Shown here: piece after piece, positions 2,999 through 28,774 of the stretch
How positions within the stretch are numbered: position 1 is the first letter of the stretch
Layout: each line of letters opens with the position of its first letter
UHGV virus genome: UHGV-0338605
Source of the DNA: a virus
DNA: 29,450 bases
Strand: one strand, 5' to 3'
The notes under the pieces: generated by a model
Seen by the model: only the letters and a program-made list of their open reading frames with translations
What the model was told of the DNA's origin: nothing
The model's database searches: none
Translations under genes and position numbers: made by a program

Positions 2999-3406
2999 TT
3001 ATTTTTCGCTCATTATCTGCTTCAGAAGATAACCTTCCAGCATCCAGATTTTATTTACCGCATTTTCGCGGGAAATCTTTCGCCCGATCTCTGGGTCGAA
3101 GTTCTCAGGGCTGGCGCATGCACTCTCGCCGGTGACAGTGAATCCATTTCGCAGCACTAGAACGCAAAACGTAAGTACTGCAGCCTGCTCAGGAATGTTC
3201 AACTCCTCAACCTTTTCATCATCTGACTTTGTATCAGTCAAATATTGATGGCGACCTGCTATACCATCAGCAGCCGTGAAGTAATGCTCACTTACTATAA
3301 CGTCGGCAATCCGTTGTGGCGTAATGCGCGGCGCGTTTAAGCCTTTAGCCTGAATTTCCTGCTCGATTGCCATGCAGGATGGTGCTGGAGATGCGGTTGA
3401 TACCAT
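2999..3406 (-). CDS. small phage protein, possibly Gp49/Gp66-like family (about 135 aa)
   Basis: ORF on the minus strand; ATG at 3406 preceded by AGGTGA (the track's GTG at 3415 is less likely). The C-terminal ASPENFDPEIGRKISRENAVNKIW resembles, from memory, Phage_gp49_66-type proteins; unverified. Confidence 0.55.
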   Translation of the reverse strand: MVSTASPAPSCMAIEQEIQAKGLNAPRITPQRIADVIVSEHYFTAADGIAGRHQYLTDTKSDDEKVEELNIPEQAAVLTFCVLVLRNGFTVTGESACASPENFDPEIGRKISRENAVNKIWMLEGYLLKQIMSEK

Positions 3407-3613
3407 GATTTTCACCTTAAAAAAATGCCCACCGAAGTGGGAGAACTGGAAGCAAGGGTGCCTTCCATGGCTTTACGGGTTTACAGCGCAACGTCATCGC
3501 AATGGCGTTCTGCTGTAAAAGTGACGGTGGTCAGCATCAAGGGAAACTGCCACCGCCAATAGCTACACAGCATCGTTCTTATGGGCGCTTCATCACGGTC
3601 CTAAGGCGTGATC

Positions 3614-3690
3614 TGGTGCGGCATGCAGGATTCGAACCTGCGACCAACCGCTTAGAAGGCGGTTGCTCTATCCAACTGAGCTAATGCCAC
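3614..3690 (-). tRNA. tRNA-Arg (anticodon UCU), argU-like
   Basis: Minus-strand 77-nt sequence GTGGCATTAGCTCAGTTGGATAGAGCAACCGCCTTCTAAGCGGTTGGTCGCAGGTTCGAATCCTGCATGCCGCACCA folds as a cloverleaf: 7-bp acceptor stem with one G-U pair, GTTCGAATC T-loop, anticodon loop CTTCTAA, encoded CCA. Confidence 0.88.
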
Positions 3691-4470: not shown

Positions 4471-6141
4471 ATGGCGGAAACCGAAAAAGAGCGTCTGCTG
4501 AAGCAGCTCGCACAGCTGAAGAATGAGCGCACATCGTTCGAGTCGCACTGGCGTGACCTGAGCGACTTCATCAATCCGCGCGGCTCTCGCTTTCTGACGT
4601 CTGATGTAAACCGTGATGATCGTCGAAACACCAAGATTGTTGATCCTACTGGCTCAATGGCTCAGCGCATTTTGTCCAGCGGCATGATGTCAGGCATCAC
4701 CAGCCCGGCACGTCCATGGTTCAAACTGGCAACGCCAGACCCTGACATGATGGATTATGGTCCGGTTAAAGTCTGGCTGGAAGTCGTGCAGCGCCGCATG
4801 AACGAAGTGTTCAACAAGTCAAACCTGTATCAGTCATTGCCTGTCATGTACGCCAGCCTTGGCACTTTCGGCACCGCCGCAATGGCTGTGCTCGAAGATG
4901 ACCAGGACGTGATCCGCACAATGCCTTTCCCGATTGGCAGCTACTACCTGGCTAACAGCCCGCGCGGCAGCGTCGACACATCCTTCCGCCAGTTCTCCAT
5001 GACTGTTCGTCAGCTTGTGCAGGAATTCGGTCTGGATAACGTCAGCTCATCGGTGCAGGGGATGTGGCAAAACGGCACGTATGAAACGTGGATCGAGGTT
5101 AACCACTGCATTACTCCAAACGTTAACCGTGATACCGGGAAGATGGACAGCAAGAACAAGCCGTTCCGCTCTGTGTACTTCGAGAGTGGCGGCGATTCCG
5201 ACAAGCTGCTGCGTGAGTCCGGCTTCGATGAATTCCCGATCCTGGCGCCGCGCTGGGAAGTTAACGGCGAAGACGTTTACGCATCTTCCTGCCCTGGCAT
5301 GCTGGCACTCGGTCAGGTGAAAGCCCTTCAGGTTGAGCAGAAGCGTAAAGCTCAGCTGATCGATAAGGCTACTAACCCGCCGATGGTCGCACCTACCTCG
5401 CTAAAAACACAGCGTGTTTCCCTGCTGCCTGGTGATGTGACGTACCTCGACGTGTTGAACGGTCAGGACGGTTTCAAACCTGCATACCTGGTAAACCCGA
5501 ATACTGCAGATCTGCTGGCTGATATTCAGGATACCCGCCAGACCATCAACAGCGCCTACTTCGTCGACCTCTTCATGATGCTGCAAAACATCAACACCCG
5601 CTCTATGCCGGTGGAAGCAGTGATCGAGATGAAGGAAGAGAAACTTCTGATGCTTGGCCCGGTGCTGGAGCGCCTGAACGACGAAGCACTTAATCCGCTT
5701 ATTGACCGCGTTTTCTCCATCATGGCGCGCAAGAACATGCTTCCTCCACCGCCGGACGTTATGCAGGGTATGCCGCTGCGTATCGAATACATCTCCGTTA
5801 TGGCGCAGGCTCAGAAATCTATCGGACTCACCAGCCTTTCGCAGACCGTTGGCTTCATTGGCCAACTCGCACAGCTCAAACCTGAAGCGCTCGACAAGCT
5901 CGACGTTGATCAGGCTATCGACGCGTTCTCCGAAATGTCCGGCGTATCGCCAACCGTCATCATTCCGCAGGAGCAGGTTCAGGGCATTCGTGAAGAGCGC
6001 GCCAAACAGGCACAAGCCGCACAGGCAATGGCAATGGGGCAGGCCGTAGCGCAGGGAGCCAAGACTCTCAGCGAGACGCAAACCACTGACCCGAGCGCAT
6101 TAACCGCTATCGCTAATGCAGCAGGAGCACCGCAGCAATGA
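4471..6141 (+). CDS. portal (head-to-tail connector) protein
   Basis: 556-aa ORF with RBS, first large gene of the head module after terminase; size and position typical of podovirus portals; Ala/Gln-rich C-terminal tail. Confidence 0.75.
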   Translation: MAETEKERLLKQLAQLKNERTSFESHWRDLSDFINPRGSRFLTSDVNRDDRRNTKIVDPTGSMAQRILSSGMMSGITSPARPWFKLATPDPDMMDYGPVKVWLEVVQRRMNEVFNKSNLYQSLPVMYASLGTFGTAAMAVLEDDQDVIRTMPFPIGSYYLANSPRGSVDTSFRQFSMTVRQLVQEFGLDNVSSSVQGMWQNGTYETWIEVNHCITPNVNRDTGKMDSKNKPFRSVYFESGGDSDKLLRESGFDEFPILAPRWEVNGEDVYASSCPGMLALGQVKALQVEQKRKAQLIDKATNPPMVAPTSLKTQRVSLLPGDVTYLDVLNGQDGFKPAYLVNPNTADLLADIQDTRQTINSAYFVDLFMMLQNINTRSMPVEAVIEMKEEKLLMLGPVLERLNDEALNPLIDRVFSIMARKNMLPPPPDVMQGMPLRIEYISVMAQAQKSIGLTSLSQTVGFIGQLAQLKPEALDKLDVDQAIDAFSEMSGVSPTVIIPQEQVQGIREERAKQAQAAQAMAMGQAVAQGAKTLSETQTTDPSALTAIANAAGAPQQ

Positions 6142-16564: not shown

Positions 16565-19500
16565 TGCCGATATATGAACAGGATCCTAAAAAGTTGCTTG
16601 GCGAGGATATTCAGCAAATAGCAGCACCTGATGACAGTAATTTCTATATGGAAACACCTTCTTTGCTTTCTGCTGTGAACCCATTTACCAGTGATCAACG
16701 CGTTCAAAGGTCTAGACAAGCAGCATTTCGTATAGATAACACGCTGGGTAGCTTTATTGCCAGTGCTCCTTTCAGTCAGTTTGACAGGGTTGAAGGATAT
16801 AACCCATTTGATAACGATGCAGCAGATATTAAAGGCTATGAAGATTTTGCAGATTCGTTTATCAACTCCGGTTCGCCTGAAGAAACAATGGCAATTAAAC
16901 ATCGAATCGATCAGCAGAGAGCTGACATGGAATACAATTCAGGCTTGGGATTTGCTGGTACAGTCTCTTCTGTAGCAATGAGATTAGCAGATCCATTCAA
17001 TGCGATTTCTATGTTTATTCCGTTCGGCGCTGTCGTTCGTGGCGGTCGTATTGCAGAAACAGCCGGGCGTTTTGCCCTGGCGAATGCTGCTGGCAGTGTT
17101 GCTTCAGAGGCCGCATTACAGGCCACTCAGGAAGCTCGCTCACCGATGGAGAGCGTATCGAACGTTGTTGTTGATGCTCTCGTTGGTGGGATCCTTGGTG
17201 CTGGTGCACAGCTACTTGCTGGACCTGGCGCGCGCGAGGCAGTGGTTAACTCAGTAGGTAATCATTTGCGAGGTATGGATTCTCCTCAAAGCATTGGTGC
17301 AGCTCAGGTTTTCAATACCACACTCGATCAGGAACAGCTCGCTGGACTTGGACTTGCTAACAAAACGTTGAGTGTCACTCCTGCTGGCCGCTTGGCGCAA
17401 TCACCATCTCTTGTCTCCCGTCAGATTAACCAGCAGCTTGCCGAAAATAACTATTTCTTCGCCAAAAATGATGAGGGGTTGGCTACGTTTACGGCAGTCG
17501 AGACTAAGATTAAGCAATACGACGCCATGCTTTATAAGCAGATGGAAGCCACTCGTGATGCTTACCAGCAGTACAGCAAATCTGTTAGCGCCCGCGGCGT
17601 GAAGAGGATGAACTTTATTGATTTCAATGAAGCTGTTGGCATGGCTATGCGCCGTGGTGATCAGAGTGATATTCCTGAGGTTTCACAAGCAGCCGCCAGA
17701 ATCCGCCCCATTTTCGAGACCACAAAAGCCCGTATGCAGGAACTGGGGATCCTTCCTAAGGATATCGATGTCGTGACGGCGAAAAGTTATCTTCCCCGCA
17801 TTTATAAGTTCGATAAGATACTTTCCGACCGCACTGAATTCAGAGGGCGAATTGCCAACTGGATACAAGGGATTAGTGCCAAAGGTGCTGACAAAGCAGG
17901 TCAGCGAATTGAAAGGATAAATTCATTGCTAAAAACTGCAGAGGAATCGGCACCGCGCGCTGATGCTCTCGCTAGTGAAATCGCTGAAGCGGAGAAATGG
18001 TCTGGTAAAAAAATTCTACTCATGGAAGAACTGGATAAACGAAATAAGCTTATATCTCAGGAGACTGACACACAGGCGCGTCTTACAAGAATAGAAAAAG
18101 AGTTGGCCGAGACTTCATCAGAAAAACTTCAGGCAAGAATGATGAAAGAAAGCTCTGACCTTAAAACACGCCTTGATGATATAGCGCAGGCAAAGAGTGA
18201 GCTTCCTGTCTATCAGCGCCATATGGAGTTGTTGGATAATCCACGGAAATATCGTTCTGAGCTTCGCCGACTGCAAAAACGGGCAAATTCAACCACAAGG
18301 CTGAATGCAAGCCGCGAACGAGCACTGAAGCAGATGGAGCCTCTATCCCGAGAGGAAGCAGAGGACGCTGCTGACGAGATCGTGAATAAAATAATAGGCG
18401 CACCTTCCGGGCTTGTACCAGCCGATATTATCCCAGAGAGACTCGTTGGTCGGGCTGGTTTCACTAAAAGCAGAACGCTGCTTATTCCTGATGAGCGTAT
18501 AGAAGATTTTCTTGAATCAGATGTTAACTACATCATGGAAAGTTATCTCCGGCAGGTGGCACCAGAAATTGAGCTGACTGCGCAGTTTGGCCGTAAAGAT
18601 ATGGGGGAGCAAATCCGTCAGGTTAGTGAGGAATATACCCGGCTAATAAAAGAGGCTAAAACACCTAAACGACGTGCAGTTCTTGAGAAGCAACGGGAGG
18701 CTGATATTAGGGATATTACGGCTATGCGTGATCGACTGCTTGGTACTTACGGTGCACCTCAAGATCCACGCAGTTTCTTTGTTCGTGCCGGGCGAGTTGC
18801 TAGGAATATTAACTTCCTCCGTTTGCTTGGTGGAATGACCGTCTCCGCTGCAACTGATCTGATGCGACCGATGATGCAGCATGGCCTGAGAAAATCTCTC
18901 GGACCAATGGTAAGCATGCTTAAAAATATGGACTCAGTGAAGATTGCAACCAGGGATTTGCGAGAAATGGCCGTTGGGCTTGATTATGTCCTGTCTACGC
19001 GTACAAAGGCTATAGCGGATCTTACTGACCCATATAGCCGGAGAAGCGCCGCTGAGCGAGGCCTGAACTGGATGACGCAGAAATTCGGTAACTGGACGCT
19101 GATGAATCAGTGGAACAGCGCACTTAAATCATGGTCTGGGATGATAGTGCAGTCGAGGATACTTGACGCGGCTCGCCAAGTTTCTGCTGGTGGCACGCTC
19201 TCCAAAAGTGAAATGCGGAAGATGGCACAGGTCGGCATCAATGAAGATGTTCTGCGCCGAATCGGGGAGCAATTCGGGAAGCACGGAGAGGATATGGACG
19301 GGCTGTTAACCGGGCATAGTCATCTGTGGGATGACCGTTTCGCTAGAGAGATTTTCCAGTCTGCAGTGCTGAAAGATGTAGACTCAGTGATTGTAACGCC
19401 TGGCGTAGGTGATACACCGCTGTTTTTTAGTAAAGAAGGCTGGAAGATGATCACGCAGTTCAAAACGTTTATCTTCGCACAGCATAACAGGGTGCTGGTA

Positions 19501-19953
19501 TCTGGTATCCAGCAGGGCGATGCTGCATTCTATCTTGGTGCGCTTGGCACGATTGCGCTTGGCTCAATGGTCTATATGATGAAACAGAAGTTAAGCGGTC
19601 GCGATATTGACTACAGCTGGAATAACCTTGTGAAAGAGGGGATCGACCGGGGCGGAATGCTTGGCTGGCTCTCTGAGCCGCTGAATACCGTTGAGAACAT
19701 AAGCGGTGGTAGGTTTGGTCTTGGCGCGATGTTTGGTGCGCCTCCGGTATCAAGGTTTCAGAGTCGTAATGCTATTGGTGCTTTACTTGGTCCTACCTTT
19801 GATCTTGGCGGTGATGCCGCGACGGTTGCGAATGGTGTACTTAACGGAGAATTTGACAGCCAGCAAACCCACGCGGTCCGTAAAATGCTACCTTTTCAGA
19901 ACCTGTGGGCGATATCACCATTACTAAATAAAGTTGAAGAGCAGATGAAATAG
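16564..19953 (+). CDS. internal core / ejection protein, gp16-like by position (1129 aa)
   Basis: Largest ORF of the module; start overlaps the upstream stop (ATAATG); long predicted coiled-coil-like central region; followed by TAG then the ATG of the next gene. Confidence 0.5.
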   Translation: MPIYEQDPKKLLGEDIQQIAAPDDSNFYMETPSLLSAVNPFTSDQRVQRSRQAAFRIDNTLGSFIASAPFSQFDRVEGYNPFDNDAADIKGYEDFADSFINSGSPEETMAIKHRIDQQRADMEYNSGLGFAGTVSSVAMRLADPFNAISMFIPFGAVVRGGRIAETAGRFALANAAGSVASEAALQATQEARSPMESVSNVVVDALVGGILGAGAQLLAGPGAREAVVNSVGNHLRGMDSPQSIGAAQVFNTTLDQEQLAGLGLANKTLSVTPAGRLAQSPSLVSRQINQQLAENNYFFAKNDEGLATFTAVETKIKQYDAMLYKQMEATRDAYQQYSKSVSARGVKRMNFIDFNEAVGMAMRRGDQSDIPEVSQAAARIRPIFETTKARMQELGILPKDIDVVTAKSYLPRIYKFDKILSDRTEFRGRIANWIQGISAKGADKAGQRIERINSLLKTAEESAPRADALASEIAEAEKWSGKKILLMEELDKRNKLISQETDTQARLTRIEKELAETSSEKLQARMMKESSDLKTRLDDIAQAKSELPVYQRHMELLDNPRKYRSELRRLQKRANSTTRLNASRERALKQMEPLSREEAEDAADEIVNKIIGAPSGLVPADIIPERLVGRAGFTKSRTLLIPDERIEDFLESDVNYIMESYLRQVAPEIELTAQFGRKDMGEQIRQVSEEYTRLIKEAKTPKRRAVLEKQREADIRDITAMRDRLLGTYGAPQDPRSFFVRAGRVARNINFLRLLGGMTVSAATDLMRPMMQHGLRKSLGPMVSMLKNMDSVKIATRDLREMAVGLDYVLSTRTKAIADLTDPYSRRSAAERGLNWMTQKFGNWTLMNQWNSALKSWSGMIVQSRILDAARQVSAGGTLSKSEMRKMAQVGINEDVLRRIGEQFGKHGEDMDGLLTGHSHLWDDRFAREIFQSAVLKDVDSVIVTPGVGDTPLFFSKEGWKMITQFKTFIFAQHNRVLVSGIQQGDAAFYLGALGTIALGSMVYMMKQKLSGRDIDYSWNNLVKEGIDRGGMLGWLSEPLNTVENISGGRFGLGAMFGAPPVSRFQSRNAIGALLGPTFDLGGDAATVANGVLNGEFDSQQTHAVRKMLPFQNLWAISPLLNKVEEQMK

Positions 19954-19954
19954 G

Positions 19955-20806
19955 ATGAAAAAAATAAATTTGTTTTTTGGCATAGTGCTTTCAATAGTCT
20001 CTGTAAATCCTACAGCTGCCAGTTCATTGCAATGCAATAAGGATAACTTTGATGCATGCAAAACGTGTGAACAATTATCAAAGGCTATCGACTTAAAAGA
20101 ACCTAATCGTGGCGATTACTATAGAGGGGCTTTATGGAATGGGCTTTACGCCTCTTATGTAATTAATTGCCCTGTGGTTGCTGAGAAGTTACTGAGCCAT
20201 GGTGCTATACCATCATATGGCGGATATATGGGGTCTATGGGGGCGGTTCTGACAGGAAAATGGCCTCATAACAATGAATCAATAAATCTTTCATGGGCAG
20301 ATTTGCTTATAAAACATGGATTTGATGTTAATAGGCATACGGGGAATTATAAATCAGCTACTGAAGTATGGGCTATAGATAAAAAACAGATTGAATATAA
20401 GTCAGTTTTTGACAAGTTAATTCAATCCAGCGAAGTAAAACCACTCGATCCTTCAAGAAATTTAGAATGGTGTGCGTCTGAAGGGTATCGCTCAGTTGTC
20501 GTTTATTCCCTTAACTCATGTATAGAAAATGCTATAAAACGTTTGGATGATGGTGTTTCTTCAGCGTCTGATATTTCATCAGCAGCCGTAAATTCCTGTA
20601 CTAGCGATGTAGAAAATTTCAATAAGCATTTGGCATGCAAAGCAGCTGTTAAAGAAAACTCTGATAAAGAGAGAAGCGACGTTTACCAGTTATTAACCAG
20701 TGATAGTCAAATGAATAAAAATGTTATTGATATGCTGAAGGAAAGAAATATTGAAACGGTTCTTGAATTTAGAGCTGAAAATCGATCAGCGAAAACTGCA
20801 CAGTGA
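19955..20806 (+). CDS. secreted or periplasmic protein of unknown function (283 aa), AT-rich accessory gene
   Basis: N-terminal signal peptide MKKINLFFGIVLSIVSVNPTAAS; strongly AT-rich compared with the flanking structural genes; ATG one nucleotide after the gp16-like stop; weak ankyrin-like LLxxGA/DVN patterns (LLSHGA, LLIKHGFDVN). Confidence 0.6.
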   Translation: MKKINLFFGIVLSIVSVNPTAASSLQCNKDNFDACKTCEQLSKAIDLKEPNRGDYYRGALWNGLYASYVINCPVVAEKLLSHGAIPSYGGYMGSMGAVLTGKWPHNNESINLSWADLLIKHGFDVNRHTGNYKSATEVWAIDKKQIEYKSVFDKLIQSSEVKPLDPSRNLEWCASEGYRSVVVYSLNSCIENAIKRLDDGVSSASDISSAAVNSCTSDVENFNKHLACKAAVKENSDKERSDVYQLLTSDSQMNKNVIDMLKERNIETVLEFRAENRSAKTAQ

Positions 20807-20812
20807 TCAAAC

Positions 20813-20837
20813 AGGCCGCTTTCGCGGCCTTGTTTTT
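20813..20837 (+). terminator. rho-independent terminator
   Basis: Stem AGGCCGC/GCGGCCT (20813-20830) with TTTC loop followed by TGTTTTT; ends the plus-strand late operon. Confidence 0.7.
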
Positions 20838-20997
20838 AACGAATGCCACCGCCGCCCGGGCGGGAATCCGCAGAACGCCCACCGCAGCGGGAGCCGTCAG
20901 CGGCAGTATCGCTGTCGTGCTGACAACGACCGGCAAAGGCCTGAGTTGAAGCTACCAGAGACAACAAAACGAACAGTGCAGCAAATGCTTTTTTCAT
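20836..20997 (-). CDS. small secreted peptide candidate (53 aa)
   Basis: Minus-strand ATG at 20997 gives MKKAFAALFVLLSLVASTQAFA followed by a short Cys-containing mature part. Coding status uncertain. Confidence 0.35.
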   Translation of the reverse strand: MKKAFAALFVLLSLVASTQAFAGRCQHDSDTAADGSRCGGRSADSRPGGGGIR

Positions 20998-21068
20998 TGT
21001 GACATTTCCATCTATAAGCCACCTCAATGTGGCGTCAATGAGTGTAGCACTGACTTTTGTTTCGTCCA

Positions 21069-21091
21069 CAAAAAAGCCCGCGCCGCGGGCT
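21069..21091 (-). terminator. rho-independent terminator for the 211-aa minus-strand gene
   Basis: Stem GCCCGC/GCGGGC (21076-21090); on the minus strand it is followed by TTTTTT (plus A6 at 21070-21075); sits just 3' of the CDS ending at 21099. Confidence 0.7.
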
Positions 21092-21098
21092 TAAAGAA

Positions 21099-21734
21099 CT
21101 ATTTTATTGGCAGCTTATGCTTTGAAATTATGGCCAATCTGTTTTGGAAGTTTTCCGCATCACCCCATAACCAGGTTTCACCTTTCTCAAGCTCTTCCTC
21201 GTTATTCATCTCTATCAGCTCGCATGTCATCATGTCGTAACCATAGAGGTGGAGGCCAAGTTCCAGTGCGTCATACATGCGAGCCTGCCAGAACGACATG
21301 CCTTCATGAGTCTGGTTGCGATCAGACACGATGATATCGTACCGTTCCAAGAGGTAGTTCATGAAGATGATGCCGGCGAAATCATGAAGCACAGCACGAT
21401 GCTTAGGCTTCTGGGTTCTCCATACCAATATCTGCGTGACAGGACGGCAGTTAAGATAGCTGTCAGGCTGGATAATGACACGATTGTAATACACTACCTC
21501 TTCGGTGAGGTCATTTATCAATGACAGTTCAAAGTGCGCCTGTGGAATCTCGCCTTTCTTACGATCGTCTACACGGACAACGCGGTATCCAGGAGCCAGA
21601 GAAACGCCTTTGACATCAGATGTGACATCGTTGCCGTTCACTAACTCTGAATACAGGGCGCGGTTGTCTGGAGTTTCGTTCAGATGAGCGAAAACCTCAG
21701 TTACCTTTGCTGGATTCAGCAGTTGTTGTGGCAT
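21099..21734 (-). CDS. hypothetical protein (211 aa), accessory gene of unknown function
   Basis: ATG at 21734 preceded by GAGGTG; own upstream palindrome site and downstream terminator; no family recognised. Confidence 0.65.
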   Translation of the reverse strand: MPQQLLNPAKVTEVFAHLNETPDNRALYSELVNGNDVTSDVKGVSLAPGYRVVRVDDRKKGEIPQAHFELSLINDLTEEVVYYNRVIIQPDSYLNCRPVTQILVWRTQKPKHRAVLHDFAGIIFMNYLLERYDIIVSDRNQTHEGMSFWQARMYDALELGLHLYGYDMMTCELIEMNNEEELEKGETWLWGDAENFQNRLAIISKHKLPIK

Positions 21735-21962: not shown

Positions 21963-22658
21963 TCAGAAGAATCCTGCTTTGTCGTTGATGTACTCCGCGT
22001 GAGTCTGGATATCACGCAGGCATTTGCTCACACCAACGATGTAGCAGAACATGGTGGTCAGTTCCGCCGCCGCGCCCGATACGTCATGCCCGTCTTCCTG
22101 TAACTGGTTCAGCAGATTCATCAGCAGTGAGTTCTCCGTCAGGCCGAGAACACCAGACGGCGAATGAATCAGGCTACGGTAGCCGGGCTTCAGTGGGGCG
22201 CTGTAGGTTTTGTTCTCTATCTTCATTGCCTGCATCACTGCTGATGCTGTGGCGTTTGCAACCTGGTCGGCAACCATCTTTATGCGTTCTTCCTGCGGGA
22301 GCGAGTTTTTAATGTAACTTCCGGTGCGGCGGATCTGAGGAAGAACCTCACCTGTAACCCATTTACGAAAGCGGTAGGGGATAGTGCCTGGTGTCACTGC
22401 GTCGCGGCAGCGGAGGATCAGTGTGTAGAGGCCTGACTCGGAGATGATGATCGATTCTTGCTCACCGCCAGGGGTGTCGGTTGAAGCGACGCCCTTCTCA
22501 TCATCATCAAGTTTTCGAACAGCATCTCGATGGTTTGCTATGCCTATAGCCCGACAAACATCTGAAGCGATAAACCATGGCTCACCATTAATGACGATTA
22601 CTCGTATATCGGCTTGGGATTCGAAAGAAAAAATGGACGTGCTTTTTGTAGCTGTCAT
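21963..22658 (-). CDS. Bro-N domain protein (antirepressor-like) with distinct C-terminal domain (231 aa)
   Basis: N-terminal FESQADIRVIVINGEPWFIASDVCRAIGIANHRDAVRKL matches the Bro-N/antirepressor N-terminal pattern; ATG at 22658 with AAGG upstream; C-terminal about 70 aa is paralogous to the small ORF at 23806-24066. Confidence 0.75.
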   Translation of the reverse strand: MTATKSTSIFSFESQADIRVIVINGEPWFIASDVCRAIGIANHRDAVRKLDDDEKGVASTDTPGGEQESIIISESGLYTLILRCRDAVTPGTIPYRFRKWVTGEVLPQIRRTGSYIKNSLPQEERIKMVADQVANATASAVMQAMKIENKTYSAPLKPGYRSLIHSPSGVLGLTENSLLMNLLNQLQEDGHDVSGAAAELTTMFCYIVGVSKCLRDIQTHAEYINDKAGFF

Positions 22659-22926
22659 AGTGGTTACCTTTTAGTCTGGTCAATCACCACTACCGACGCC
22701 AATCGGTTGGTGGTGAACTGTGCAGGGTTGGCGTAACCGGCTAAAAGGACCCGGCGCACCTTTCGGTGCCCCCACACAGCCCACCATAATACGAATGTGG
22801 CCGTGCTATACGCATAAAAAAACCGCTTGCGCGGTGAATGCGCCTTTTAGTAATCCGGGACGCCAATCCCGGCACTGGATTTTGCCAGTGCCCGATTACT
22901 ATGGCACAAGAGGAGTGCGATGTAAA

Positions 22927-23055: not shown

Positions 23056-23784
23056 ATGGAAGTTTTCTGGATAGTTGTTGGTGTTGTTACGGTGATTATT
23101 TACGTTATCAACCAGAACAGGACTAAGGTCTCTGATCGCACAGTCGTTAATCATCGCAAAACGATAAAGACCGAAGATGGAGAAATAACGATTAATCGTA
23201 CACAGGTGATAGACCACACCTCCACTCAGTTTCAAAAAACTGGAGGTAATGCGCCGGATATTTCAGTACATCCTGCTTATGATATATCGGTAATCCAGAC
23301 ATATTATAAACAACAGGAGTCAGCAAAAGAGAGGGCGCTGATTCAGCCAAAGCCATTTACAGCAGAGCTTCCACCTGGAGTGTCAACGCGTCCGGCATAT
23401 CATGACAGATTCCCAGGTGATGACATATCGTCTCAGTTACCTAAAAAAGCTCCTCAGGTAGTATCTGAGCCAGCAAGAATACCTTCTGTATCGCCATCAC
23501 AAGAAGAATCAGCTAACAGAGTTTCAAGTGGTAGTAAGCAGTGTTTGCGATGCAGAATAAACCTTCCATATGAAAAATTCAGGAAATCGTCAAAAAATCC
23601 AGATGGATTGACTAAGTGGTGTGCAAGGTGTCTCGATGGCCCAAAGAATACACGCCATATGAAGTGGTGCCCAATTTGTAATGTCCGCAGAAAACGCACC
23701 AGCTTTTACTCTAATAATCAAAATGCGGACGGCTTAATGGCATGGTGCAAAACGTGCTGGGACGAGCACAAAGCGAAACGATAG
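23056..23784 (+). CDS. membrane-anchored protein with tandem Cys4 zinc-ribbon-like repeats (242 aa)
   Basis: GAGGAA RBS; N-terminal hydrophobic helix FWIVVGVVTVIIYVI; C-terminus carries two repeats of C-x2-C-x(17-20)-DGL-x3-WC-x2-C; AT-rich; followed by a strong terminator. Confidence 0.65.
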   Translation: MEVFWIVVGVVTVIIYVINQNRTKVSDRTVVNHRKTIKTEDGEITINRTQVIDHTSTQFQKTGGNAPDISVHPAYDISVIQTYYKQQESAKERALIQPKPFTAELPPGVSTRPAYHDRFPGDDISSQLPKKAPQVVSEPARIPSVSPSQEESANRVSSGSKQCLRCRINLPYEKFRKSSKNPDGLTKWCARCLDGPKNTRHMKWCPICNVRRKRTSFYSNNQNADGLMAWCKTCWDEHKAKR

Positions 23785-27065: not shown

Positions 27066-27126
27066 ATTGTGTGTGATGTGATCACCAACTAATGGGGGTC
27101 TTTATGCACAGTAAACGGTGGTCACC

Positions 27127-27531
27127 ATGTCAGCCCAGCTAACCAGTGAGTCTTTAAATCAGTGGCTTAGTATGGGTTCTCTGGCTGCAGTGATCGCAGG
27201 AGTTCCACCAGAGGTGGCGCTTGGTGCTTTATCAGGTGCGGTAATATTTATTACCTCAGCCGTTGAGTATCCAATACGCCGTCGGGTTCTCCTGTCGATG
27301 CTCAGCTTCCTCTGCGGGCTTCTATTCTACAAACCAACTGCATCAATCCTTATCGGCGTAGCCAGCCTGATCCCAACTATCACGCAGGACTCTTTCGAGA
27401 AAGGGATCGTCTTCTCTGCTGGCGCGTTCGTGTCGGCAATCGTCGCAGTACGTATTGGTATCTGGCTCTATCACCGTTCCGACAATCCACGCGATTTAAT
27501 CCCGGGGAGAAAAGACGATGACAACTCATGA
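27127..27531 (+). CDS. putative holin (multi-pass membrane protein, 134 aa)
   Basis: ATG 27127 preceded by GGTGG (track begins at GTG 27118); several hydrophobic segments and a charged C-terminus; first gene of the lysis cassette. Confidence 0.6.
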   Translation: MSAQLTSESLNQWLSMGSLAAVIAGVPPEVALGALSGAVIFITSAVEYPIRRRVLLSMLSFLCGLLFYKPTASILIGVASLIPTITQDSFEKGIVFSAGAFVSAIVAVRIGIWLYHRSDNPRDLIPGRKDDDNS

Positions 27532-27823
27532 GCTGCTTTTACTGATTGCCAATGCGGTTATCTGTTCAGCTATAGCAATCCGCGTCGGTACATTCAGGCG
27601 TAATGGATCGCAACACCGCCGGTGGGGTGGGTGGATAGCCTACTTCCTTATCGTGGCATCAGCCAGCATCCCCGTCCGGGCTGCATATGCAATCTGGTAT
27701 CACACACCAATGTCCGCTGATTTATCAGAGGTCATCATCAATGCTGTCATGCTTGCCGCCGTTCTGAAGACGCGCGGTAACGTCGTGCAGATATTCAAAA
27801 TATCGAGGTCTCAACATGAGTGA
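27518..27823 (+). CDS. second holin-like / antiholin-like membrane protein (101 aa)
   Basis: GGGGAG RBS; overlaps the upstream gene's 3' end; three hydrophobic segments. Confidence 0.55.
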   Translation: MTTHELLLLIANAVICSAIAIRVGTFRRNGSQHRRWGGWIAYFLIVASASIPVRAAYAIWYHTPMSADLSEVIINAVMLAAVLKTRGNVVQIFKISRSQHE

Positions 27824-28295
27824 ACTTGCATGGATTTCTGAAGGAAGAAAATATATAGGGCAACTGGAAATCAAAGGCCCTCGTCATAATCCTCTAATTC
27901 TCCAGTTCTGGAAGGATATTAAACGAGGTGGTATCAAAGATGATGAAACGCCATGGTGTGCTGCATACGTCGGATCAATGCTCGAGCGTGTCGGAATCAA
28001 ATCAACCCGTTTCGAGTCTGCAAAATCTTACCTCAACTGGGGCGTCGAAATTAGCGAACCAGCTTATGGGTGTGTAGTGGTATTCAATCGTGACGGTGGC
28101 GGACATGTCGGGTTTGTTGTCGGACAGCAACAGAACGGTGACCTGATGGTGCTGGGCGGTAATCAGTCAGATGCCATCAATATTCGTGCATTTTCACGCT
28201 CCCGTGTCACCGGTTACCGCTGGCCTGTTAATGTTGCCAAGGACAACAGGAAGTTACCTTTAATGACCGGCTCATTATCGGTGAGTGAATCATGA
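27816..28295 (+). CDS. putative endolysin (Cys/His peptidase-type peptidoglycan hydrolase, 159 aa)
   Basis: ETPWCAAYVGSML and GGGHVGFVVG motifs suggest a Cys/His hydrolase of the type often found as endolysin beside holins (TIGR02594-like, from memory); overlaps the upstream stop. Confidence 0.6.
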   Translation: MSELAWISEGRKYIGQLEIKGPRHNPLILQFWKDIKRGGIKDDETPWCAAYVGSMLERVGIKSTRFESAKSYLNWGVEISEPAYGCVVVFNRDGGGHVGFVVGQQQNGDLMVLGGNQSDAINIRAFSRSRVTGYRWPVNVAKDNRKLPLMTGSLSVSES

Positions 28296-28774
28296 TCAGA
28301 GCATTCATGAAAGCGTACTGGAAACAGTTGCTTATCGTGGCGATGCTTGCTGCTCTGGTGATCGTCGGCGTTGTTGCCTGGAATGTTCATGGCAGCCGAC
28401 AGTATGACGCCGGGTATGCGCAGGCAAAGACAGACCGTAAAACCGAAGATGATAAAGCTCGTCAGCACGACGAACAGGAGAAAGCAATCAATGAACGTAA
28501 AGCGCAGCAGAGGATCGACCAGGCGCGCAATGATGCTCTTGATGCTGCCGCTCGCGCTGGCAGGTTGCAGCAACAGCTCGTTGCCATCCGTGAGCAGCTC
28601 AGGCAGTATAACGCCATTGTCGGCGCTGGGCCGTCAGCCGCAGACACCGGTGTTTTGCTTGCCGACTTGCTCAGCAAATCTCTCGAGCGAAACCGACAAC
28701 TGGCAGAGTACGCTGATCGGGCAGCCGAAGCAGGAAGAGTCTGTGAAAAGCAGTACGATTCGCTGACCAGGTGA
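28292..28774 (+). CDS. Rz-like i-spanin (160 aa)
   Basis: N-terminal transmembrane segment LLIVAMLAALVIVGVVAW followed by a charged coiled-coil-like region; ATG overlaps the endolysin stop (ATGA). Confidence 0.7.
   Translation: MIRAFMKAYWKQLLIVAMLAALVIVGVVAWNVHGSRQYDAGYAQAKTDRKTEDDKARQHDEQEKAINERKAQQRIDQARNDALDAAARAGRLQQQLVAIREQLRQYNAIVGAGPSAADTGVLLADLLSKSLERNRQLAEYADRAAEAGRVCEKQYDSLTR
28491..28766 (+). CDS. Rz1-like o-spanin lipoprotein embedded in Rz in the +1 frame (91 aa)
   Basis: AGGAG before ATG 28491; signal peptide with lipobox LALAGC; Pro/Ser-rich mature part; entirely within the Rz gene, as in lambda Rz/Rz1. Confidence 0.6.
   Translation: MNVKRSRGSTRRAMMLLMLPLALAGCSNSSLPSVSSSGSITPLSALGRQPQTPVFCLPTCSANLSSETDNWQSTLIGQPKQEESVKSSTIR

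Follow-up and report, generated by a model that had tools for sequence, protein, structure and literature searches.

At the junction between the DNA-ejection genes and the variable region of the virus genome UHGV-0338605 lie two small genes, here called ORF A and ORF B (ORF, open reading frame). ORF A encodes 283 amino acids (aa) and directly follows the gp16-like ejection gene, and ORF B, on the opposite strand and convergent with it, encodes a 53-aa precursor; by the window we mean the whole stretch of 29,450 nucleotides (nt) that was analysed. Judged from their sequences, both are very probably genuine exported accessory proteins. As an explanation of the locus as a whole we tentatively favour two independent, disulfide-bonded accessory proteins of the periplasm, of which ORF A would block DNA delivery. 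Neither protein falls in a described family; as a kind they are familiar, being exported accessory proteins encoded beside the ejection and tail genes of a temperate phage.

ORF A, a probable exported protein linked to the ejection genes

The initial annotation placed the start of ORF A one nucleotide after the stop codon of the gp16-like gene, and the junction does read TAGGATG, with TAG at 19951-19953, G at 19954 and ATG at 19955, leaving a 1-nt gap. ORF A is also, as had been noticed, more AT-rich than the structural genes, with 36.9% GC overall and 28% at third codon positions (GC3) against 48.2% and 44% in the upstream gp16-like gene; the window has 49.4% GC. An open frame of 283 codons at this composition would arise by chance with a probability of ~2e-9 (estimated from base composition), comparison with the Klebsiella homologue gives a ratio of non-synonymous to synonymous divergence (dN/dS) of 0.09 at dS 0.83, and ORF A is matched across its full length by phrog_6118 and annotated in RefSeq as WP_001555613.1. 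By these measures ORF A is a real gene under strong purifying selection.

The amino terminus of ORF A, MKK-INLFFGIVLSIVSV-NPTAA followed by SS, is laid out in n-, h- and c-regions like a Sec signal peptide, the -3/-1 site placing cleavage after residue 22. Its h-region LFFGIVLSIVSV, after MKK, has a mean Kyte-Doolittle (KD) hydropathy of 2.73 and, with cleavage between TAA and S, the segment has the features of a Sec (type I) signal. These calls, for ORF A as for ORF B, come from a heuristic check of n/h/c features, lipobox and hydrophobic segments, by which no second hydrophobic segment was found in the whole of ORF A. A signal peptide is present in 14 of 14 aligned homologues, always hydrophobic and variable in sequence and length, and in the AlphaFold2 (AF2) model residues 1-24 are disordered, with a predicted local distance difference test score (pLDDT) below 50. 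A lipoprotein was considered and rejected: there is no lipobox, and Q or K precedes the first Cys (SSLQC, ALAKC, AYSKC). All eight Cys of the mature protein are invariant across 14 sequences, at identities down to 39%, whereas the three core proteins (191-1129 residues) contain 1, 2 and 0, the gp16-like protein having none. Eight invariant Cys fit an oxidising compartment and disfavour a virion protein. The cleavable signal peptide proposed in the initial annotation is thus borne out by layout and homologues, and its view that the product is exported rather than built into the virion agrees with the signal peptide and the Cys content, as far as sequence can tell.

The AF2 model is all-helical with a mean pLDDT of 78, moderate in the N-terminal domain (N-domain) and 91-97 in the C-terminal domain (C-domain, 170-283). 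Profile searches separate the two halves: ~40 clusters of ~160-aa signal-peptide proteins match the N-domain alone and carry its motifs C-x7-C-x2-C, GDYYRGALWNGLY and KWPH, and a weaker set of signal-peptide proteins of 110-160 aa matches the C-domain alone, with LDDGxSxASDIA between two flanking Cys. The ankyrin-like patterns that had been pointed out in ORF A reflect a recognisable if weak relationship. Although a Pfam scan that included the Ank and Ank_2-5 models gave no match at E<=1, the family profile reaches P0127 (E=9.1e-10, seven stretches, query residues 64-127) and also P0144 and P0125, all three multi-Ank proteins by Pfam, which makes the profile relation reciprocal. Fold comparison points the same way for residues ~64-127; the likeness is weak and extends to 2-3 degenerate repeats. 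Structural matches to the C-domain are generic helical bundles only. The N-domain therefore appears to be a strongly diverged, disulfide-stabilised domain of ankyrin type and the C-domain a helical bundle with no specific relative, and the halves are separate modules with no enzymatic or catalytic signature.

Among metagenomic proteins (P0085-P0092, P0093-P0153) the two halves define two separate small secreted families without a Pfam model, and the stand-alone homologues of either domain that were scanned contained no Pfam domain. Other C-terminal extensions occur on the N-domain members P0100, P0111, P0114 and P0116, and P0122 carries TPR repeats. Stand-alone N-domain homologues whose surroundings were looked at lie on short metagenomic contigs near PIN7, DUF4344 and toxin-antitoxin genes, which gave no lead to a function. 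Neither ORF A nor ORF B had a match in Pfam or NCBIfam or, at E<=1, in PADLOC-DB (hidden Markov models of anti-phage defence); their PHROGs matches are labelled just 'unknown function' and 'membrane associated protein'. A sequence search of the PDB gave no significant match, and the literature, searched by accession, by phage name and for 'transmembrane anchored protein', yielded no functional study.

A prophage in the chromosome of E. coli O166:H15 JNE070796 is 100% identical to the window; the isolated podovirus EC.W1-9 is a close relative, and TL-2011b and phiV10 are more distant ones. The full-length ORF A family is restricted to a single lineage of temperate podoviruses. Among 5.8 billion clustered proteins it comprises ~25-35 clusters, whose sources are Escherichia, Klebsiella, Serratia, Morganella and Providencia, and among 50,697 phage records it occurs in one, EC.W1-9. 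A gp16-like gene (~1130 aa) lies directly 5' on the same strand in all seven genomic contexts (5 genera), with spacers of 1-31 nt, and ORF A follows the gp16-like gene in 30 of 30 IMG/VR contigs, a single 176-nt spacer being probably due to a frameshifted gp16 end. Identity of ORF A to the window falls from 86% in Klebsiella through 58% in Serratia and 43% in Morganella to 39% in Providencia, and that of the neighbouring genes falls in the same order (gp15-like: 82, 58, 44, 36%; gp16-like: 90, 79, 56, 53%). This parallel suggests that ORF A has long travelled together with the ejection module and, by these comparisons, it is a stably linked companion of the ejection genes over five genera, not a casual appendage.

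In E. coli, ORF A is present in 106 of the 120 complete genomes that have this gp16 allele, and in the other 14 the match ends exactly at the gp16 stop codon. The carriers (106/5426 complete E. coli genomes, ~2%) include lineages of extraintestinal pathogenic (ExPEC) and avian pathogenic (APEC) E. coli, and carriers in general are animal-associated Enterobacterales. Homologues have 35-40% GC in every host, and the adjacent gp16-like gene ranges from 39% to 54%. In one of the 14, E. coli MS20659 (L035), two different genes fill the space from this stop codon to the shared terminator element, and related viable phages without ORF A are TL-2011b and Klebsiella phage ST512-KPC3phi13.3. To judge from these alignments ORF A is dispensable, and in E. 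coli it behaves as a replaceable cassette whose limits are the gp16 stop codon and a conserved terminator. It is slightly unusual for a quasi-core partner of the ejection genes to have a foreign base composition and to be exchangeable. The alternative cassette of MS20659 (L035 4955-5857) codes for two proteins, one of 149 aa and a convergent one of 146 aa that has a signal peptide and several Cys; neither had a significant Pfam match.

The 1-nt gap is too short to hold a promoter, and no sigma-70-like site was found in 19300-19955 upstream of ORF A. In a comparison of E. coli with Klebsiella, the final 90 codons of gp16 have a proportion of synonymous differences (pS) of 0.58-0.70 against a gene mean of 0.61, and since there is no local fall in synonymous divergence an embedded conserved promoter is not indicated. 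A promoter in the gp16 3' end was therefore set aside as unsupported, with neither a consensus match nor such a drop; a weak or non-sigma-70 promoter may exist, and expression in the prophage state is conceivable. Distant homologues have Shine-Dalgarno sequences of their own within spacers of 11-31 nt. Most simply, ORF A would be the final cistron of the late virion/ejection operon, with coupled translation in E. coli. A frameshift fusion of gp16 and ORF A was ruled out, as reading frames and spacers (1-31 nt) vary between genera. Both genes had been described as appended to the ejection operon; this stands for ORF A and fails for ORF B, which is a separate convergent unit.

ORF B and its transcription unit

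ORF B is MKKAFAALFVLLSLVASTQAFA followed by GRCQHDSDTAADGSRCGGRSADSRPGGGGIR, a signal peptide of 22 aa and a mature peptide of 31 aa with 2 Cys. The h-region AFAALFVLLSLV, after MKK, has a mean KD of 2.82 and, with cleavage between AFA and G, ORF B also has the features of a Sec (type I) substrate; there is no lipobox, the first Cys following GR or GN. The bare length of the frame is not significant (~0.07 chance at this GC). Across Enterobacterales 57 protein clusters match ORF B, and the ORF B alignment has a variable signal peptide, a kept A-x-A site and then a nearly invariant core, CQHDSDTAADGSRCGGRSADSRPGG. Over the 25 codons of this core pS is 0.62-0.95, near saturation, against a proportion of non-synonymous differences (pN) of 0-0.18, and the Buttiauxella core has 16 synonymous and no non-synonymous changes. 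Saturated synonymous change beside rare non-synonymous change indicates that ORF B is a translated gene and not the by-product of a terminator. The suggestion that the small ORF could encode a secreted Cys-containing peptide of about 30 residues has thus gained in weight from its RefSeq entry (WP_000708858.1), PHROG 14503, purifying selection and the kept A-x-A site. NCBI calls it a 'transmembrane anchored protein' on the strength of the N-terminal helix; the conserved A-x-A site speaks for removal of this helix by cleavage. An AF2 model of ORF B, low in confidence over the mature part, was left aside.

We give hardly any credence to the alternative that ORF B is not a gene and owes its conservation to a terminator or to some other DNA or RNA element. 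Such a view would be suited by the shortness of ORF B, by the conserved terminator on which it abuts and by an element at 20811-20874 that persists as a relic in phages lacking the rest of ORF B. It does not sit well with synonymous sites that are saturated while the 25-residue core hardly changes, with a signal peptide that changes its sequence and keeps its properties, or with a motif that recurs as the C-terminal domain of longer Mesorhizobium lipoproteins; nor does any Rfam family match the ORF B region, a search over 19800-21300 having found no RNA family above noise.

To judge from its flanks ORF B is a real autonomous mini-gene with a -10-like box of its own, a 5' hairpin and flanking terminators (Table 1). 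The proposed promoter is an extended -10-like element, TGCTACACT (TGn-TACACT), put forward by a consensus argument only. A TAnnnT hexamer stands in the same place in 11 of 12 ORF B loci from nine genera, Tolumonas being the exception, with T10 and A11 as invariant columns and T15 nearly so; no -35 match was found upstream. A hairpin lies 6-7 nt after the -10 box in 11/12 loci and is built from at least five different stem sequences (GCCAC/GUGGC, GCCGUC/GAUGGC, CCGC/GCGG, GCUGC/GCAG and ACAAAUC/GAUUUGU), so that in the aligned loci (L009, L014-L023) it is the structure, and not the sequence, that is conserved through compensatory substitutions. The hairpin could be an mRNA-stabilising or regulatory leader. 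Upstream, the intrinsic terminator of a leftward 211-aa gene would insulate ORF B, and a weak Shine-Dalgarno sequence precedes the ATG at 20997.

Of 5426 E. coli genomes, ~500 (~9%) carry ORF B, as do 12 phage records, every one of them phiV10/TL-2011b-like. In 19 of 30 ORF A loci it is found downstream of ORF A; a functional pair of ORF A and ORF B was considered and rejected on this count and on the ~500 E. coli genomes with ORF B against 106 with ORF A. The core motif is also found in Tolumonas, Methylobacterium and a Bryobacterales metagenome-assembled genome, and this reach far beyond phages is unusual. As C-x12-C-GGRSAxSRPGG it forms the C-terminal domain of ~115-aa Mesorhizobium lipoproteins with the lipobox LSGC (L025, L026, L028-L030, L032), and it occurs within longer secreted proteins of other Proteobacteria and of the Bryobacterales genome (L033 and L034 among the loci). 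Pfam had no match for ORF B or for the three core representatives scanned (Mesorhizobium L026, L033 and L034). On sequence grounds the core is a small, widespread extracytoplasmic domain without a Pfam model.

The late operon and ORF B run towards the same G+C-rich hairpin at 20813-20830, which has predicted folding energies of -16.1 and -17.5 kcal/mol, lies 5 nt from the end of ORF B and can terminate in both directions. This element is the annotated terminator of the structural operon in phiV10 and is common to TL-2011b and the ORF A-less prophage L035. Together with the last 7-13 codons of ORF B it is kept at 96-98% identity in phages and prophages without ORF B (window 20811-20874; L035 5869-5932; phiV10 L003 5001-5048); the retained stretch is what remains of ORF B or else a junction favoured by recombination. 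The slot after the gp16-like gene is filled in phiV10 by a 46-aa protein with two transmembrane segments, and in Serratia (L007 8850-9146) and Providencia (L013 8838-9140) an unrelated polytopic membrane protein of ~100 aa is encoded behind the ORF A homologue, on its strand. The first position after the last ejection gene often houses small envelope proteins.

A proposed block of DNA delivery and its alternatives

In the explanation we tentatively favour, ORF A would be co-produced with the ejection proteins and pass through Sec into the periplasm, where it would become oxidised and, as a binder, stop the delivery of DNA across the envelope. Its target would be the gp14/15/16-type periplasmic conduit of incoming related phages, or an envelope component that this conduit needs. 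Superinfecting phages would thereby be excluded, and progeny would be spared ejection into doomed cells or debris. ORF B, after cleavage by signal peptidase, would be a soluble periplasmic peptide of 31 residues with one disulfide that probably binds a widely conserved envelope target. A block of DNA delivery is ranked first for ORF A because its fold is of the binder type, its predicted place is the periplasm, and its gene is tied to the ejection genes and diverges along with them; taken by itself the assignment of this role, drawn from position, fold class and analogy, is possible and somewhat doubtful. Precedents for arresting DNA entry outside the cytoplasm are Llp of T5 and Cor of phi80, N15 and HK022, which are made with signal peptides. 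Exclusion by a secreted protein is also known from Ltp of the Streptococcus thermophilus phage TP-J34 (PMC3952083). The P22 gene sieA is an accessory gene found in 22 of 66 phages, always between gene 16 and the tailspike gene 9; SieA blocks the gp20/gp16 ejection-protein conduit, escape mutations mapping to gp16 and gp20, and it is the only exclusion system for short-tailed phages studied so far (PMC10883804). ORF A would be a soluble periplasmic counterpart of SieA in an equivalent genomic slot.

Several points weigh against this explanation. No experiment, homology or match in the defence database PADLOC ties ORF A or ORF B to exclusion. The main weakness is expression in the prophage state: no promoter of its own was seen for ORF A, which may therefore be made only late in the lytic cycle, when exclusion is less useful; a late-only ORF A would protect the infected cell and the progeny, not the lysogen. 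The nearest models differ in kind as well, since SieA is a polytopic inner-membrane protein with its own promoter, expressed from the prophage, whereas ORF A is soluble, co-cistronic with late genes and has no detected promoter, and Ltp, Llp and Cor are lipoproteins, anchored in membrane or lipid, whereas ORF A has no lipobox and no homology to them. Vertical inheritance of the module explains the co-divergence with gp15 and gp16 equally well. The N-domain motif is very strongly conserved in stand-alone proteins outside phages, which favours a generic ligand over one specific to phages, and the slot in ST512-KPC3phi13.3 holds a 204-aa protein without a signal peptide. It is rather unlikely that the matter goes further still, with ORF A as the first soluble periplasmic factor to act against or work with a T7-type ejectosome and the ORF B core as an undescribed mini-domain that binds a universal envelope component. 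If it did, the domains of ORF A would recognise the periplasmic gp15/gp16 tunnel of their own lineage, co-evolve with it and cap or misassemble the conduit, and expression from the same operon as the target would give exclusion at a late stage or in the lysogen.

Could ORF A instead be cargo, folded in the periplasm late in infection, freed by lysis or shed in vesicles, and acting on the animal host or on other cells, as bacterial and phage ankyrin-repeat proteins commonly do? Its late operon, signal peptide, four probable disulfides and ankyrin-like domain would suit such a part, all carriers are animal-associated Enterobacterales, ExPEC and APEC among them, and ANKp proteins of phages (the sponge 'Ankyphage'), which have N-terminal signal peptides, dampen macrophage responses (10.1101/608950). 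We nevertheless think it unlikely: the ankyrin likeness is weak, with 2-3 degenerate repeats and no Pfam match, host-benefit genes of the moron type are usually shuffled among phages whereas ORF A is tied to one gene and co-diverges over five genera, and the stand-alone homologues of the N-domain are environmental-metagenomic and lie beside toxin-antitoxin genes, not virulence loci. Nor do we put much weight on a periplasmic immunity protein or inhibitor that would serve the lysogen against a type VI lipase or amidase effector, a colicin, a lysozyme or a transglycosylase. No cognate toxin gene is near ORF A in any context fetched, no promoter for expression from the prophage was found, and the likeness to 7ubz, a periplasmic immunity protein of the type VI secretion system (T6SS), is no better than that to dozens of unrelated ankyrin proteins, even though a binder-type fold with disulfides and the AT-rich, cassette-like behaviour typical of conversion genes would agree with such a role.

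Late expression and periplasmic location, as proposed here for ORF A, would also be expected of a protein that controls lysis or remodels the envelope, for example a periplasmic antiholin-like factor or a spanin- or peptidoglycan-binding factor tuning the time of lysis, and the invariant aromatic residues Y55, W61, Y65, Y68, W103, H105, W114 and Y148 could form a face that binds glycan or peptidoglycan. This is quite improbable given that ORF A resembles no known lysis regulator, that it lies ~6 kb from a holin/endolysin/spanin cassette (27118-28774) which is complete without it, and that 14 of 120 related prophages do without ORF A. Strict synteny, probable translational coupling with the gp16-like gene and co-divergence with the core proteins would finally be consistent with a fourth ejection or virion protein, whose N-terminal hydrophobic segment would insert into the membrane after ejection. 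Such a protein is most improbable: the hydrophobic segment is a canonical signal peptide with a conserved small-residue cleavage site, the 261-residue mature protein has 8 invariant Cys where the core proteins have 0-2, and ORF A is dispensable, being replaced in related prophages and absent from TL-2011b and ST512-KPC3phi13.3. It has no homology to the gp14/15/16 families, and genus-dependent frames and spacers (1-31 nt) exclude a frameshift fusion to gp16.

Both ORFs are annotated only as hypothetical; ORF A is carried by ~2% and ORF B by ~9% of complete E. coli genomes. Pfam has no model for the families of small secreted proteins that are defined by each of the two ORF A domains and by the ORF B core. 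Should ORF A indeed block the delivery of DNA, it would add to SieA a second exclusion system for short-tailed phages, one with a different mechanism; it would also open a way to study the periplasmic stage of T7-type ejectosomes and deserve attention when therapeutic podoviruses are chosen. Were ORF A a plain conversion gene, the result would be an ordinary one.

Genomic surroundings and comparison with known systems

In the window the head genes are followed by a 191-aa protein, named 'virion core protein, T7 gp14 family' in RefSeq, a 915-aa and a 1129-aa protein, the variable region, the tailspike gene and the lysis cassette. All that lies between the gp16-like stop codon and the tailspike gene is mosaic, and the interval of ORF A and ORF B is the start of this variable region, between the last DNA-ejection gene and the Ant/tailspike region. 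The 1129-aa gp16-like protein matches phrog_342 'internal virion protein' with E=5e-233. It aligns to positions 192-1227 of this 1235-position profile ('internal virion protein with endolysin domain'), the N-terminal muralytic part of the profile being seemingly absent; in Pfam it has a marginal DUF919 match only, which is the origin of its RefSeq name. The C4 and IsrK RNAs, both above the Rfam gathering score, lie upstream of the BRO-N/Ant gene and form with it an immI-like antirepressor control module of P1/P7 type; two promoter-like sites are found nearby at 22971-22898. A tRNA-Arg gene stands in a ~1.5-kb gap, beside a 138-aa minus-strand ORF at 2999-3415. A 242-aa protein (23056-23784, plus strand) has an N-terminal hydrophobic segment, 8 Cys and two C-terminal CxxC-type matches of zinc-ribbon/endonuclease VII-like kind (Stc1; phrog_1035, phrog_5558), and is conserved as phrog_6762, for which PHROGs assigns no function.

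Table 1. Positions in the window of ORF A, ORF B and the features around them
Feature	Position	Strand	Remarks
tRNA-Arg (anticodon TCT)	3614-3690	-	between terminase-like (1474-2955) and portal-like (4471-6141) genes
gp16-like internal virion (ejection) protein, 1129 aa	16564..19953	+	last core gene of the gp14/gp15/gp16-like trio
ORF A, 283-aa exported accessory protein (predicted; WP_001555613.1, phrog_6118)	19955..20806	+	last cistron before the operon terminator
ORF A signal peptide, residues 1-22 (predicted)	19955..20020	+	cleavage between TAA and SS, no lipobox; from heuristic, homologues and AF2
ORF A N-terminal domain, residues ~27-160	20033..20434	+	Cys-stabilised, divergent ankyrin-like; motifs C-x7-C-x2-C, GDYYRGALWNGLY, KWPH
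ORF A C-terminal domain, residues ~165-283	20447..20803	+	helical bundle, 4 invariant Cys, motif LDDGxSxASDIA
G+C-rich hairpin terminator	20813..20830	.	late/ejection operon (+, then TGTTTTT), probably also ORF B (-)
ORF B, 53-aa precursor (WP_000708858.1, 'transmembrane anchored protein', phrog_14503)	20836..20997	-	convergent to ORF A
ORF B mature 31-aa peptide (predicted)	20931-20839	-	one Cys pair
ORF B signal peptide (predicted)	20997-20932	-	
Hairpin GCCAC-ATTGAG-GTGGC	21018..21033	-	at predicted 5' end of ORF B mRNA, starting where transcription would begin
Extended -10-like element TGCTACACT for ORF B (candidate)	21041..21049	-	TGn-TACACT; consensus argument only
Intrinsic terminator of upstream leftward 211-aa gene	21068..21092	-	8-bp stem, 6 GC pairs, T-run; would insulate ORF B
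BRO-N/Ant gene	21963-22658	-	C4 and IsrK RNAs upstream
C4 antisense RNA	22706-22791	-	Rfam, 77.7 bits
IsrK Hfq-binding small RNA	22816-22891	-	Rfam, 77.9 bits

Shiga toxin of lambdoid prophages is a late-transcribed, disulfide-bonded periplasmic product with a signal peptide that is released by phage lysis. ORF A shares with its genes the late operon, the signal peptide and the (predicted) disulfides; it has no homology to the toxin and no toxin or enzyme signature, and lies inside the structural operon instead of upstream of the lysis genes. Like the morons bor and lom of lambda, ORF B is laid out as terminator, -10-like box, small gene for an exported protein and terminator, and is patchy among related phages, and ORF A has the atypical base composition and the presence/absence pattern of morons. 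Unlike morons, ORF A has no promoter of its own that could be found, uses the terminator of the operon and keeps a fixed neighbour over five genera, and the ORF B core recurs as a domain in lipoproteins encoded on alphaproteobacterial chromosomes. With ANKp ORF A shares a signal peptide and, at residues ~64-127, a relation to ankyrin repeats, as in 7ubz. It lacks the TPLH signature of the Ank clan, and its degenerate repeats are set in a Cys-knotted domain (GDYYRGALWNGLY, KWPH) that is fused to an unrelated helical domain.

Ltp, Llp and Cor are signal-peptide proteins that act outside the cytoplasm, as proposed for ORF A, and several are encoded beside tail or receptor-binding genes; their targets (the tape measure protein, FhuA) do not exist as such in the phage type to which ORF A belongs. 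SieA proteins are defined, as types A-C, by a polytopic inner-membrane topology and the motif FxRYPxEAxxFNK (PMC10883804). ORF A has neither this motif nor any sequence similarity to SieA, its single hydrophobic segment is N-terminal, and the ejectosome of its phage is of T7 type (gp14/15/16), that of SieA being of P22 type (gp7/20/16). Like SieA of P22, however, ORF A is an accessory protein with a (predicted) envelope location. Its gene, too, stands in a temperate podovirus after the last ejection gene and before the Ant/tailspike region and, as in P22, an immI-like module of C4/IsrK and Ant lies next to the slot that it occupies.

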